Made by a program: the position numbers and the translations under genes. A model generated the notes under the pieces. It was not told the DNA's origin. It saw nothing but the letters and a program-made list of their open reading frames with translations, and ran no database searches. Below, in pieces: positions 4,030 to 8,838 of a stretch of DNA of 64,000 nt; the stretch's first letter is position 1; every line of letters starts with the position of its first letter. Location: contig CAWJTV010000011.1 of NCBI GenBank assembly GCA_963845755.1, positions 960,001 through 1,024,000 of the forward strand, in the 5' to 3' direction. The stretch is from an uncultured Planctomycetota bacterium (GTDB lineage Bacteria > Planctomycetota > Planctomycetia > Isosphaerales > Isosphaeraceae).

Positions 4030-4542
4030 CGCGCGTCGGTCTGATCGACGAATGGGTGCGCCGTGGCTAAGGTTTGTCTGGTCTTGTCGGGAGTGCCCCG
4101 ACCCCGCTGGAAGAAGGCGGGTCAAACGTTCCGCTGACCTTCAACCGAAAGGATCGAGGGGACAACAGCATGCGGAAGAAGCGACGTGAGGCCCAGCGTC
4201 AAAGGGCCGAGAGACGTTCGCAAGTTAGGCCACGCATGGGTAAGGCTGGATTGCTTGAACTCCAGTCCCAGTGGGTGTGCTCGATCACCGCCGGGAATGA
4301 CGCTGAAACCCGGATTCCTGTCTCACGGGGGCATGCCATTCACCTCCGTGATCTTCCGGCAGGACACACCCTGCAATGAGCAGGGGCAAGGGATGAACGG
4401 AGGCCCTCAACGTGGACCGGACCTGACCGACAACCACGGGATCGCCTAACGGCAGCAATGCCCAAGGCGACAGAGTCCCCGTAGTAGGCATCGGCCCAAG
4501 GGGGACAGGACACAGGGCTTCACCAAGAACGGGGTGACTCGG

Positions 4543-5045
4543 ATGAGTCATTCAGCCCTACTCAGGCTTGAAGCACTGCGGAAGTGCAACACGGACCTCA
4601 ACTGGGTCAACGCGGATCTGTATCGACTCCTCTACAAGACGGATCTCTACATCGTCGCGTATGAGAAAATCAAATCCGCTCCCGGGAACTTGACTCCTGG
4701 CACCGACGGGATGACTCTCGATGGGTTCTCCATGGATGCCATCGACGACATCGTGGCGACCCTGCGAGACGAGGGTTTCCAATTCAAGCCTTCGCGGCGG
4801 GAATACATTCCCAAGGCAAATGGCAAGATGCGGCCTCTCGGCATCTCATCCCCAAGGGACAAGATCGTCCAAGAGGTCATCCATGTGATCCTCGAAGCGA
4901 TCTACGACAGTCCGAAAGGGCCTACCTTTAGCGACTGTAGCCATGGTTTTCGGCCTGGTCGAGGGACTCACACGGCCCTGCATGAGTTCAGGACCAAGTG
5001 GTCTGGTGTGACGTGGATCATCGAAGGGGATATAAAATCCTGCTT
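4543..5045 (+). CDS. ltrA: intron-encoded RT/maturase, 5' part (RT0 to the start of RT3), interrupted
   Basis: AYEKIKSAPGNLTPGTDG, RREYIPKANGKMRPLGISSPRDKIVQE, SHGFRPGRGTHTAL, WIIEGDIKSC then a break. Confidence 0.9.
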
Positions 5046-5068
5046 GGATCGGGCATCTTGATACCCTC

Positions 5069-7114
5069 CTAAAAACGTAAGTTGTTGAGATCTCCTGCCC
5101 GCAGTTGCCGGAACCGGGCCAGGGTCTCGGGAGTGTCGGGAAACAGGTAAGTCCTTCTCTCGAAATTGATGTCAATTTGAATTGTTCCATTGTGGATTCG
5201 ATCATAGATCCAGTGTCGTGGGATATTCAGCTTCATGGCCACCTGTGGGACTGTCAAGAAGCCGGGGATCTGGCGTGGGTGCGATTGATGGCGGTCGCGC
5301 ATCAGACCGTGGCTCAGGCGAAGGAGCTGAACCGTGCTGGGCAGAACGGTTCGGCCCCTGGGCGAACGGAAGCCATCTTGGGTCAACTGGCCGGCGATCT
5401 CCTCATCGGTCTTCCCTTCCCGCGCCAGCCGCAGGATCGTGTCCTCCATCTCTCGGCTGCCTGAGAGTCGGGCCAAGGCGCCCACCGTGACTGCGAGGTC
5501 GGCCTCCGACACGTCACCCCCCTTCCAGACGACGCGACAGTGGACCGTGTCCGGGACCCTCCGATCAACGACGACCTTGTCGATCAGGCATCGCAATAGC
5601 GCCTTCTTCTGCTCCTGTGAGAAGCGGTTGGCCTCCCACCATTCCGGGATCGTCCGCCCGGCGTCACTCAGCGCCTGGCGTGTCGCGCTGTCGAGTCGAG
5701 CCCAGGTCGCTGGCTGCGGCTCTTCTCGTGCCCGCGCCTCTTCGGCCTGCTTGAGTTCCCGTAAGGCGATCTCCCAACGCTTCTCGAGTTCCGCCGTCAC
5801 CAGCCGGTTGTCTGGATCGGACTTCTGGAACTGGCGTTCGGCCAGTCGCGCCTGGTAACGAAGTCGTTCCAACTCTTGCTGCCGTGCCCGATGGATCTGT
5901 TCGTGTTCCTCCGAGAGAGACCCCAGGACGCGCTCGTAGATGTCGAGCTCCGCAGGCGCCAAGGCGGCGAAGAAGACTTGCACGACATGGTCGTCGATCG
6001 GGTCCGCGGGGAGGTACTGGCAAACCGGGACCTGATGTTGTTGGCGCAAATAATTGCAGATATAGTGAGTTTTCGGTTTGTACTGCACGACCATCTGGTG
6101 GCCGCACTCGCCGCAGTAGACAATGCCGTGCAACAAGGCTTTTCCCGGCCGGGGAACGCCTCGGGTCCGATTGCGATCATACTCGCTGTAATTGTCGCGG
6201 ATCATGGCCTGGATTTTCTCATAAGTGGCCCAGTCGATGTAGGCCGGATACTTGTCCGGAATGCGGATTCGCCACCCGGCCATCGGCTGGAGTTTCTGCA
6301 CGGCCGGCTGGTTGGGACCGGTTCGGACCGAGCGGGTGCGCCCGTAGACAAATGCGCCCGCGTAGGCGGGATTCTTCAGGGTCGAGCCCAGACCGGCGAC
6401 CGAGGGCCTCTTCCAGGCGACGTCGCCGAAGGAGTCGCGTCGAGGAATGAGCAAGTTTCGCTCTTTGAAGTACCGGACGACTTTGGCAATGGACCGCAGG
6501 CGGAGGAACGTGGCGAAGACCAGATCGATGCGTCCCTGGACCTCGCGATCCGGATGCTTGGTGACGCGTCCCAGCGGATCACGGATGAGGCCGGTCGGCA
6601 GAGTCAGTGCCAGTTCCCCGCGTTGGGCCTTCTTGAGCACGCCATCGATCAGCCGACCCCGGAGGGTATGGAGCTCCAGCTCGGAGATCTGGCCTTTGAG
6701 CCCGAGCAGAAGGCGACCGTTGGGAGTGGAGGGATCGTAGATCCCATCGCGGTCGCCGATGAGGCAATGACGGTAGCCGCAAAGATCGAGCAGTTGATAC
6801 CACTCGGTGCAGTTTCGTGACAGACGGGTGACATCGTAGGAGAAGATGATGCCGACCTGGCCGAGTGTGACCCGAGTGATGAGTTCCTTCAACCCCTCGC
6901 GTCCCACGACGGTGCTGCCGGTCTTTCCCAGGTCGGCATCGATGATCTCGACGTCCTGGGGATCCCAGCCGCACTCACAGGCGCGTTGCCTGAGATCGTA
7001 CTGGAGCCGTTGGCTCTCCAGATTGTTCAGGACCTGATGAGGGCTGGACTGTCGGATGTAGATCAGGGCCTGGCGGCCCCGGTGGAAAGCCGTTACGAGT
7101 TCTGAGATATTCAT
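5069..7114 (-). CDS. large serine recombinase (resolvase + recombinase + zinc-ribbon + coiled coil), 681 aa, intact
   Basis: YIRQSS catalytic motif, DVTRLSRN, LKNPAYAG, LLHGIVYCGECG...YIC...C zinc ribbon. Confidence 0.93.
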   Translation of the reverse strand: MNISELVTAFHRGRQALIYIRQSSPHQVLNNLESQRLQYDLRQRACECGWDPQDVEIIDADLGKTGSTVVGREGLKELITRVTLGQVGIIFSYDVTRLSRNCTEWYQLLDLCGYRHCLIGDRDGIYDPSTPNGRLLLGLKGQISELELHTLRGRLIDGVLKKAQRGELALTLPTGLIRDPLGRVTKHPDREVQGRIDLVFATFLRLRSIAKVVRYFKERNLLIPRRDSFGDVAWKRPSVAGLGSTLKNPAYAGAFVYGRTRSVRTGPNQPAVQKLQPMAGWRIRIPDKYPAYIDWATYEKIQAMIRDNYSEYDRNRTRGVPRPGKALLHGIVYCGECGHQMVVQYKPKTHYICNYLRQQHQVPVCQYLPADPIDDHVVQVFFAALAPAELDIYERVLGSLSEEHEQIHRARQQELERLRYQARLAERQFQKSDPDNRLVTAELEKRWEIALRELKQAEEARAREEPQPATWARLDSATRQALSDAGRTIPEWWEANRFSQEQKKALLRCLIDKVVVDRRVPDTVHCRVVWKGGDVSEADLAVTVGALARLSGSREMEDTILRLAREGKTDEEIAGQLTQDGFRSPRGRTVLPSTVQLLRLSHGLMRDRHQSHPRQIPGFLTVPQVAMKLNIPRHWIYDRIHNGTIQIDINFERRTYLFPDTPETLARFRQLRAGDLNNLRF

Positions 7115-7162
7115 GAATAACCTCCGCGCAGATCGCTGAGATGTCGTCGATGGCTTGCTGTT

Positions 7163-7438
7163 TCACGGTCTTGGGGAGCTTCGACCAGACGTCTTGGGGC
7201 AGGGACACGGCGTTTCATCCTCCTGGATCAGGGAAAGGAGCTCACGGATGGCGTCCGGAGTCCATTTTGTCCCGGGAAGGGTGATCTGGCTTACCATCGC
7301 GCTGGTCGAGGCGACGGGGATGCGGAGCTGCATCCCGTCGCGATAGGCGACGAGTACATGGCCGGAGCCGTGGGGTGGTCGGGAGATCGAGACGACGGCA
7401 AAACGCCGGCGGAAGAGGGGGTGAGTCGGATCCGTCAC
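7163..7438 (-). CDS. small protein at the head of the recombinase element (DUF5372/Y4bD-like)
   Basis: VTDPTHPLFRRRF...LRIPVAST motif typical of ORFs upstream of this recombinase class; the frame stays open to the element end at 7500. Confidence 0.65.
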   Translation of the reverse strand: MTDPTHPLFRRRFAVVSISRPPHGSGHVLVAYRDGMQLRIPVASTSAMVSQITLPGTKWTPDAIRELLSLIQEDETPCPCPKTSGRSSPRP

Positions 7439-7500
7439 CTCAATCTCTTCGGGAAGGGATTGAGGCGGGTTGTGGAACGGGGCATCATGAAAGGGTCTCG

Positions 7501-8838
7501 TTCGACGAGATCGATCACCACGTCCTGGTTTCCCTGATCCGGAAGAGGATCTCGGACGAACGCTTCATCGGCCTGATCTGGAAAGCACTCCGGGCAGGCT
7601 ACCTATGGAGGAAGGAACCGGGGGCCTCGTTTATCGGGACCCCGCAGGGGAGCGTGGCCAGCCCTATCCTCGCCAACATCTACCTGCACGAACTCGACCT
7701 CTTCGTCGAGGGACTACAGCAGAAGTACGAGAAGGGCAGCAAGCGGAAGGACAGCCCCGAGTATCACCGGATCAACTATCGCAGGCAGCGAGCGTTGAAA
7801 CGGTCAGGTGGGATCATGACGCCGGAGATTCGCGCTTTGACGAAACAGATGCGATCTCTCCCGTCGATGGACACGTTTGACCCTGGCTTCGTCAGAGTCA
7901 AATACATCAGATATGCAGACGATTGGATCGTCGGCGTCACGGGGCCGAGGTCCCTGGCCGAACAGATCAAGGACGAGATTCAGGCGTTCCTATGGGACAG
8001 GCTGAAACTGCAACTCAGCCAGGAAAAGACGGTCGTCACTCACGCCAAGACCGAGGAGGCCTTCTTTCTCGGGACGCGGCTTCAGGTGGGGGCCGTCAAC
8101 CCACAGCCCAAGGTTACCCACTGCCACAACCAACGGCGGCACTACCGGCGCCGGTGTACGGGGTGGAGCCCGCTGATGCGAGCGCCGATCAGGAAACTGG
8201 TCAAGCGTCTTCACCAGAAGGGCTTCTGTGACGGTGAGGGCATCGCCCGATCCAAGACAGCGTGGGTCTGCCTGGAGGTGAAGCACATCATCGAACTGTT
8301 CAACAGCACCAATTGGGGGCTGTTGAACTACTACAGGTTTGCTGACAACTTCGCCTCCATGAGCCGTATCCAGTACATCCTGCATTTGTCACTTGCGAAG
8401 ACCTTAGCCCACAAGTTGCAGAAGCCCGTTAAGCAGCTCCTCTGCGAACACGGACGCACTCTGCAATTCAACTGGAAAGACGGCGAGGGGAAGGAACGGA
8501 ACACCTTCTTCAAAGCCAACTCCGACTGGACCCGGAACCCCACGGCATTTCTAACGGGAAGAGATCAAACCGACCCACTGGAGATGCACGTCCGATTCCG
8601 GACAAGGTCCCGCCTGGACCACCCATGCATCATCTGCGAAACAACGGTCGGGGTGCAGATGCACCACGTCCGTCACATCCGAAAGATGGAGGGCAAACCT
8701 GTCGGTGGGTTTGCCTGGCTGATGCGACTCCAGAACCGGAAGCAAGTGCCCGTCTGCCGAGAGTGCCACCGTAAGATCCACCGAGGAGAATATGATGGCC
8801 TCCGACTGGCGGACCTGGCATACCGGGTTGGACCGTGA
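7501..8838 (+). CDS. ltrA: intron-encoded RT/maturase/HNH endonuclease, 3' part
   Basis: FDEIDH, GTPQGSVASPILANIYLHELD, YIRYADDW, domain X (GLLNYY), HNH (CIIC...MHHVRH...VCRECHRKIH). Joined with the 5' part gives 612 aa. Confidence 0.92.
   Translation, partial: FDEIDHHVLVSLIRKRISDERFIGLIWKALRAGYLWRKEPGASFIGTPQGSVASPILANIYLHELDLFVEGLQQKYEKGSKRKDSPEYHRINYRRQRALKRSGGIMTPEIRALTKQMRSLPSMDTFDPGFVRVKYIRYADDWIVGVTGPRSLAEQIKDEIQAFLWDRLKLQLSQEKTVVTHAKTEEAFFLGTRLQVGAVNPQPKVTHCHNQRRHYRRRCTGWSPLMRAPIRKLVKRLHQKGFCDGEGIARSKTAWVCLEVKHIIELFNSTNWGLLNYYRFADNFASMSRIQYILHLSLAKTLAHKLQKPVKQLLCEHGRTLQFNWKDGEGKERNTFFKANSDWTRNPTAFLTGRDQTDPLEMHVRFRTRSRLDHPCIICETTVGVQMHHVRHIRKMEGKPVGGFAWLMRLQNRKQVPVCRECHRKIHRGEYDGLRLADLAYRVGP

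Follow-up and report, generated by a model that had tools for sequence, protein, structure and literature searches.

In the insertion sequences IS911, IS30 and IS2, and in IS110/IS1111, a promoter is assembled at the circle junction, which ties expression to the transposition intermediate. Serine recombinases also excise circles, and in the Clostridium transposons Tn4451 and Tn4453, which use the recombinase TnpX, the circle joint reportedly forms a promoter for the recombinase gene. SSV1-type integrase genes and intP of the Myxococcus phage Mx8 hold the attachment site attP in their own coding sequence and are whole only when the element is free. Circle-dependent promoters at transposon joints and attP sites within the genes of a few phages are, then, already known. 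Here we describe a large serine recombinase (LSR) element at positions 5044-7502 of a 64,000-nucleotide stretch of DNA (the window throughout this text) from an uncultured Planctomycetota bacterium of the Isosphaeraceae (GenBank assembly GCA_963845755.1, contig CAWJTV010000011.1, positions 960,001 to 1,024,000 of the forward strand). Our preferred reading, which we consider likely, is that the element carries attP inside its first gene and that the protein of this gene can be translated only from joined ends, thereby reporting the topology of the element. What is new is the separation of a ribosome-binding site (RBS) and start codon from the body of their open reading frame (ORF), conserved across phyla in an LSR element of two to three genes.

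None of the systems compared separates the RBS and start codon from the body of an accessory ORF. Like Tn4451 and Tn4453, the window element is a small LSR transposon whose joint creates an expression signal missing from the integrated form, here the joint of a circle that we infer; unlike them, it brings together a Shine-Dalgarno (SD) sequence and start with an accessory ORF body, so that control would be translational and the recombinase is not the controlled gene, and it differs also in its targets and accessory genes. With the circle-junction promoters of insertion sequences it shares a signal that is split between the ends and whole only in a circle or tandem. That analogy, drawn in a preliminary description of the locus, holds in its logic but not in its mechanism, as the insertion sequences use DDE or DEDD transposases and a split promoter (-35/-10), whereas here a coding sequence is divided into translation start and ORF body within the attP of a serine recombinase. 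The SSV1 and Mx8 cases differ in that it is the integrase gene that is split or altered, and in their use of tyrosine recombinases. Mycobacteriophage BPs likewise carries attP within one of its genes, the repressor gene, and integration alters the product (136 aa versus 103 aa; PMC4557955). BPs uses a tyrosine integrase, has the 3' end of the repressor gene cut and makes protein in both states, whereas in the window element the 5' end with the start codon is cut off and the integrated state should give no protein. LSRs integrate alone and require a recombination directionality factor (RDF) for the reverse reaction (PMC10083194); phiC31 gp3 and Bxb1 gp47 are small RDFs encoded beside the LSR that bind it and set its direction (PMC10083194, PMC5814800). 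The small protein of the window has no sequence relation or clear fold relation to gp3 and gp47, and its expression state would be opposite to the need for excision. Neither this element family nor a gene split in this manner was found in the literature searched, which left subscription journals mostly outside.

The start of the small gene lies at the 3' terminus of the element, where one arm of attP (5046-5079, minus strand) contains the last LSR codons and stop, the SD sequence, the ATG and 8 nt of coding sequence. The SD sequence is a perfect AGGAGG (5065-5070, minus strand; CCTCCT on the plus strand) that overlaps the LSR stop codon TAG (5069-5071), and it is followed on the minus strand, after a spacing of 8 nt, by the ATG (5056 to 5054), which itself stands 8 nt from the core. 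The preliminary description had reported this overlap and spacing, and its coordinates were verified in the sequence. It had also held that in the integrated state the ATG yields only a short peptide running into the antisense of a reverse-transcriptase (RT) gene, and the frame indeed reads 12 codons there before a stop. The remainder of the gene is found at the opposite end as a DUF5372-like ORF body of 112 codons plus stop (7163-7501, minus strand), which has no start codon of its own: the minus-strand frame is open from 7501 to the stop at 7163-7165, no ATG, GTG or TTG occurs in frame in the window upstream of a GTG at 7438, and a stop in the flank lies 22 codons upstream. The second attP arm (7467-7500, minus strand), at the 5' terminus of the element, is symmetric with the first and doubles as codons 5-16 of the joined protein. 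When the two ends were joined in silico through one copy of the core, the ATG fell in frame with the ORF body to give 116 codons, in agreement with the length of 116 aa that had been proposed; integration cuts this joined gene between codon 4 and codon 5.

The integrated LSR element at 5044-7502 is 2,457 bp in size (2,455 bp plus one 2-bp core) and interrupts the RT ORF of a group II intron. The 5' part of this ORF (4534-5043, plus strand) matches RVT_1 and ends in ...EGDIKSC, and the 3' part (7503-8838, plus strand) encodes RT, maturase and HNH regions (Intron_maturas2, E = 9.2e-26; RVT_1; AI2M-like HNH); precise in-silico excision restores the reading ...DIKSCFDEIDH.... A copy of the 2-bp crossover core stands at each border, at 5044-5045 (TT on the plus strand, AA on the coding strand of the element) and at 7501-7502 (TT on the plus strand). 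Two further copies of the element are present in the same genome, one on contig C26 that is 100% identical and one on contig C6 that is 74% identical, and both part from the window sequence precisely outside TT at both ends. Of the host intron itself the genome has at least six copies, which match at 100% identity over 745 bp; one is occupied and five are empty, and the empty site reads ...TCCTGC-TT-CGACGAG... and corresponds to attB. In one contig from a soil sequencing run, position 5043 continues directly into 7501, so that 2,457 nt are absent, with 2 bases ambiguous, although this contig represents an empty site and not necessarily an excision, because five empty intron copies exist in the genome. 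Since the copies in the genome diverge outside TT, and with the five empty sites and the skipping contig, the borders of the element are exact. The presence of two 100% identical copies at different sites is indirect evidence of recent movement and, with the empty sites, of catalysis of integration and excision.

With the LSR as query, 59 loci spread over many phyla were retrieved (best-segment identity 44-75%), some of them from named isolates such as Calothrix sp. PCC 7103 and Ktedonospora formicarum. Together with the window and the two other copies in its genome, these loci formed a census set of 62 records. Both termini are present in 40 of these, while 9 retain only the LSR-side terminus, with the SD-ATG motif in all 9, and 5 only the other terminus; 3 have the far end with a truncated LSR-side terminus (L040, L049 and L057), 3 are fragments without the SD-ATG motif (L008, L062 and L064), and 2 have neither terminus. 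The family includes decayed copies: in L008, L040, L049 and L057 the SD-ATG segment is missing from the terminus or the LSR gene is truncated at its 3' end, and broken ORFs are found in L024, L056 and the C6 copy. The small ORF adjoins the LSR gene upstream in 46 of the 59 loci, the rest being cut by contig ends or partial matches. An automatic border finder, which is ambiguous at A-runs, served for the census only; borders were set by the same dinucleotide at both ends together with a target ORF reopened by precise in-silico excision. Of 36 elements examined with a strict pattern, 24 regain the RT block D-x-x-x-[FYC]-F-D-x-I-x-H on excision; six more (L007, L027, L041, L042, L023 and L024) restore an RT-like ORF by inspection, and the remainder are inserted in genes of other kinds.

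Joining homologous elements in silico had been proposed beforehand as a check on the split, with about one-third in frame expected by chance. The terminal ATG is in frame with the small ORF in 39/39 elements that have both ends and matching cores (30 distinct sequences from several phyla), which is more than expected by chance, though these are not 39 independent trials, because the layout of ATG, 8 nt and core is shared by descent and attP spacing is itself constrained. A further element, L031, has the same geometry but differing cores (AA and AC), which indicates that its LSR-side flank is rearranged. The same dinucleotide is found at both ends in the 39 elements, and the family cores comprise AA, TT, TA, AC and CC. 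L035 has a TT core instead of AA and lies in the opposite orientation in its RT target, which fits a role of the central dinucleotide in setting polarity; its split gene, too, joins in frame. The attP consensus, drawn from 27 distinct sequences, shows symmetry between the arms in three blocks, at positions 1-5, 12-21 and 25-34 counted from the core.

Independently of that count, the joined frame is coding by its length changes, its freedom from stops, its codon-position pattern, its invariant ATG and the absence of a start when integrated. Core and conserved domain are 64 nt apart in most elements, 61 nt in two clades, 58 nt in L056, 55 nt in L053 and 85 nt in L049, which is intact at its 5' end only. 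Length has thus changed at least four separate times, and by a multiple of three in every case. No stop interrupts the joined frame in any of the 30 distinct sequences, whereas the other two frames contain stops in 19/30 and 28/30. The same holds within the linker outside the symmetric attP arms (18-27 nt), where stops occur in 0, 15 and 18 of 30 by frame, with the joined frame first, and where the third codon position is the most variable (entropy 1.65 versus 1.36 and 1.18). The ATG is invariant, being present in 27/27 distinct sequences of attP, whereas conservation at the mirror positions of the opposite arm is only 0.56, 0.67 and 0.44; because these mirror positions vary, recombinase binding symmetry does not explain the ATG. 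A purine-rich, SD-like run precedes the ATG by 7-9 nt in all 24 elements inspected. Between the core and a conserved valine codon, which corresponds to the GTG at 7438 of the window, none of the 24 elements contains an in-frame ATG, GTG or TTG, and flank-derived starts exist in 7 of them, at seven different offsets. Among 101 database homologues of the small ORF, conservation begins at the threonine codon of the junction, and the sequence upstream is unrelated flank.

The preferred reading can be stated as a sequence of events. With attP lying within codons 1-16 of the small gene, the LSR would exchange its arms on integration, leaving the SD sequence, the ATG and the first 11 coding nt beside the LSR stop and the other 112 codons, startless, at the far end of the element. 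Excision, or an arrangement of head-to-tail copies, would reunite SD and ATG with the ORF body and render the 116-aa protein translatable. In a circle, the LSR transcript would be expected to continue over the junction into the completed gene, because only 23 nt separate the LSR stop from the crossover and no terminator-like site stands near the stop, and the geometry suggests that ribosomes ending LSR translation would restart at once on the overlapping SD sequence, so that a special junction promoter would be unneeded. The small protein would in this way constitute a report of the element's own topology, with integration turning its gene off. As for its function, a tentative guess, to which we give a minority chance, is that it acts as a partner of the LSR at the circle stage, favouring or securing integration or blocking its reversal. 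Should the protein set direction, a minimal LSR transposon would have solved the problem of directionality without outside signals, and its switch could serve as a compact, self-resetting control part for serine-integrase tools.

Signals in the DNA around the element were surveyed at 4900-7700. A sigma-70 consensus scan of this region as integrated detected no promoter-like site, the joined sequence and other promoter types lying outside the scan. No terminator-like site was found near the LSR stop, and the same region yielded one weak terminator-like site (6368-6355), fewer than in shuffled sequences. When the junction transcript was folded in silico, the attP arms paired with each other at an ordinary energy (z -0.16).

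Several observations weigh against the preferred reading. The joined form was not recovered from the material searched, in which rare forms tend to be lost, as assemblies and contigs lose them: when metagenome contigs were searched with a degenerate junction pattern, none of the 92 matches belonged to the family (they were judged to be chance matches, as tblastn found no family protein at E 1e-4 and only noise at E 10), and the same pattern had 0 matches in viral contigs and 0 matches in the window's own assembly; among the contigs of four soil runs, the joint of the empty site and another flank were present, but a back-joint was not. The translation-level junction switch put forward in the preliminary description is supported by the in-frame split conserved in the family. 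The absence of a joined form from the assemblies and contigs searched does not disprove circles; these, and expression of the small protein from joined ends, are what we infer from sequence. The five vacant, identical sites in the genome indicate that the element moves rarely or is mostly silent. Codons 5-16, including an N-N-P motif, may be conserved as DNA and not as protein, their conservation being ambiguous because they lie in the symmetric attP arms. To these points are added the shared descent behind the 39 in-frame joins and the fold of the small protein, described below, which is a common small barrel and provides no direct evidence of a role in integration.

Other explanations of the split differ mainly in where and when the small protein would be made. 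Translation could begin in the integrated state at an internal start, the GTG at 7438 or similar, in which case the N-terminal 25 codons would be untranslated and the SD and ATG kept as part of the recombinase site. A purine-rich run does precede the GTG in the window, gene callers often begin homologues there (91-aa entries), and the terminal ATG lies inside attP; however, the codon is GTG in 3/24 elements and GTA, GTC or GTT in most others, so this start, which had been named beforehand as a case that would refute the switch, is not conserved. The stretch upstream of it is moreover stop-free in 30/30 sequences, with a coding codon pattern and in-frame length changes only, and the ATG remains invariant despite variable mirrored positions in attP, and we give an internal start only a slim chance. 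Slightly better placed, yet still quite unlikely, is the explanation that the split is real but forms no switch, being a consequence of tight packing, with a protein that is needed at a stage when the element is circular in any case or is dispensable. The element is extremely compact, with the LSR stop, SD and ATG in one attP arm and three overlapping ORFs, but the arrangement persists in several phyla despite shifts in target and core dinucleotide, and the ORF is intact in most integrated copies, which together point to selection on the arrangement; the outcome would also hardly differ from the preferred reading, as protein would still come only from joined ends.

The preferred reading also has to be set against two explanations that accept joined ends or an LSR partner in another form. 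Expression mainly from head-to-tail tandems or replicated multimers instead of the free circle would use a junction sequence identical to that of the circle, but the window's own assembly, the 62 family records and the metagenome and viral contigs contained no tandem junction, and excision of circles by serine recombinases is established knowledge for the family; we regard this as extremely unlikely. That the small protein is the excision factor, or RDF, of the LSR is suggested by its being encoded beside the LSR, as RDFs are, and by a weakly predicted binding to the LSR. It is nevertheless very unlikely: excision requires its factor in the integrated state, in which this gene lacks a start, and an RDF made from the circle would hinder integration. 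A conserved ORF with a start of its own, termed orfX and described below, would be the better candidate for a factor of the integrated state.

The small protein of the window matches the Pfam family DUF5372 (PF17342) with E 0.0084 and 16.6 bits, below the gathering cut-off of 25, while five close homologues (P0012, P0019, P0023, P0029 and P0042) carry PF17342 in a precomputed table; by sequence, it appears to be a divergent relative of this family and not a member by the cut-off. NCBIfam and PHROGs returned no match for it, and DUF5372 is not mentioned in the literature searched. Its predicted structure has a mean pLDDT of 76.7, rising to 89-95 over residues 21-70, and the core (residues 17-71 of the 112 encoded by the ORF body) is predicted with high confidence to form a small SH3/KOW-like barrel followed by a helix. 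Foldseek found no match at E 0.001 or better, and the best VIA Z of 5.1 (rmsd 2.5-3.0; 48-53 residues aligned) was to small SH3/KOW/Tudor-like barrels. The fold gives no indication of function, because the small barrel is common and the best Z is only 5.1. Prediction of a complex between the LSR and the small protein scored 0.60 versus 0.00 for the best control, a level at which a pass is more often wrong than right unless binding is already likely, given that a pass at 0.60 or below was reached by 18/157 solved complexes and by both mismatched pairs that passed (2 of 215). With contact agreement between runs of at least 78% and a partner pLDDT of at least 62, the model lends weak support to binding of the small protein to the LSR. 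Longer forms of the small protein were found in 4 hits, one of which contains kinase domains, which we interpret as reading through out of a kinase gene that had been interrupted; a recombinase fusion was not seen among these longer forms.

The LSR gene (5069-7114, minus strand) encodes 681 aa with a Resolvase domain (PF00239, E = 2.3e-19, residues 16-167), followed by a Recombinase domain (PF07508, E = 2.5e-15) and a zinc ribbon (PF13408, Zn_ribbon_recom, E = 6.1e-08), and it matches the integrase family phrog_95 of PHROGs (E = 2e-59). Residues Y19, R21, Q22 and S23 are invariant in 23 homologues. The protein is an LSR by its resolvase catalytic domain with serine, its Recombinase and zinc ribbon domains, and the 2-bp core within an imperfectly symmetric attP. 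Its score against XisF, the recombinase of the fdxN element (NF041201), was 92.2 bits against a cut-off of 375, which makes it a relative and not a member of that family. The three-block symmetry of attP is longer than the usual two-block serine-integrase site. In an extra C-terminal region the LSR shows a weak match to HTH_17, of excisionase type (residues 619-647), and this HTH-like region could be a reader of the outer attP block.

The third ORF, orfX (6975-7208, minus strand), encodes 77 aa. Read in another frame, it overlaps both neighbouring genes, the small ORF in its 3' part and the LSR gene in its 5' part. It starts with GTG here and with ATG in most relatives. Protein-level conservation across phyla covers the 31-32 codons in front of the LSR start, with the recurring pattern M-P-x-x-P-x-x-V-W-x-x-L-P, after which orfX runs on for 37-74 codons into the LSR gene in the other frame; a synonymous-shuffle test of the openness of this frame inside the LSR gene gave P values from 0.02 to 0.80 over 21 loci. 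No Pfam family matches orfX. We regard its product as a candidate factor of the integrated state. A more elaborate and rather unlikely proposal combines the three proteins into a self-contained direction switch. The integrated element would produce the LSR alongside the orfX product, the latter serving as excision factor; after excision, ribosomes finishing the LSR would run into the completed DUF5372 gene, and the product of this gene would bind the LSR, perhaps with the outer attP block and the C-terminal HTH-like domain, and turn it towards integration, which would in turn remove the head of the gene and set the switch back. Within the family, this machine would have been retargeted to conserved motifs of the group II intron RT, the IS3 transposase and other LSR genes.

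Most members are inserted in RT genes, which indicates that the family targets mainly other mobile elements. The C6 copy lies in a second RT gene, at the same F-D codons as the window element, and its LSR frame is broken near codon 51; the C26 copy occupies a non-RT site that is target-like only around the core. Contigs of the soil runs X1 and X3 leave the right end at 7502 into another flank, one frame of which is RT-like (...D-Q-I-S-H-N-W-L-L), and this alternative flank suggests a further insertion site in the sampled population. The genome encodes two more distant LSR genes, on contigs C9 and C48, with 48% and 37% protein identity to the window LSR. Targets elsewhere in the family include another LSR gene (L010 and L012; motif D-G-x-Y-D-P...R-L-L-L-G-L-K-G, core TA), an IS3-type transposase (L053; motif Y-D-N-A-V-M-E-R-F-F, core AA), a protein kinase (L014; motif H-R-D-L-K-P-S-N, core TT) and a cysteine-rich ORF (L056; core CC).

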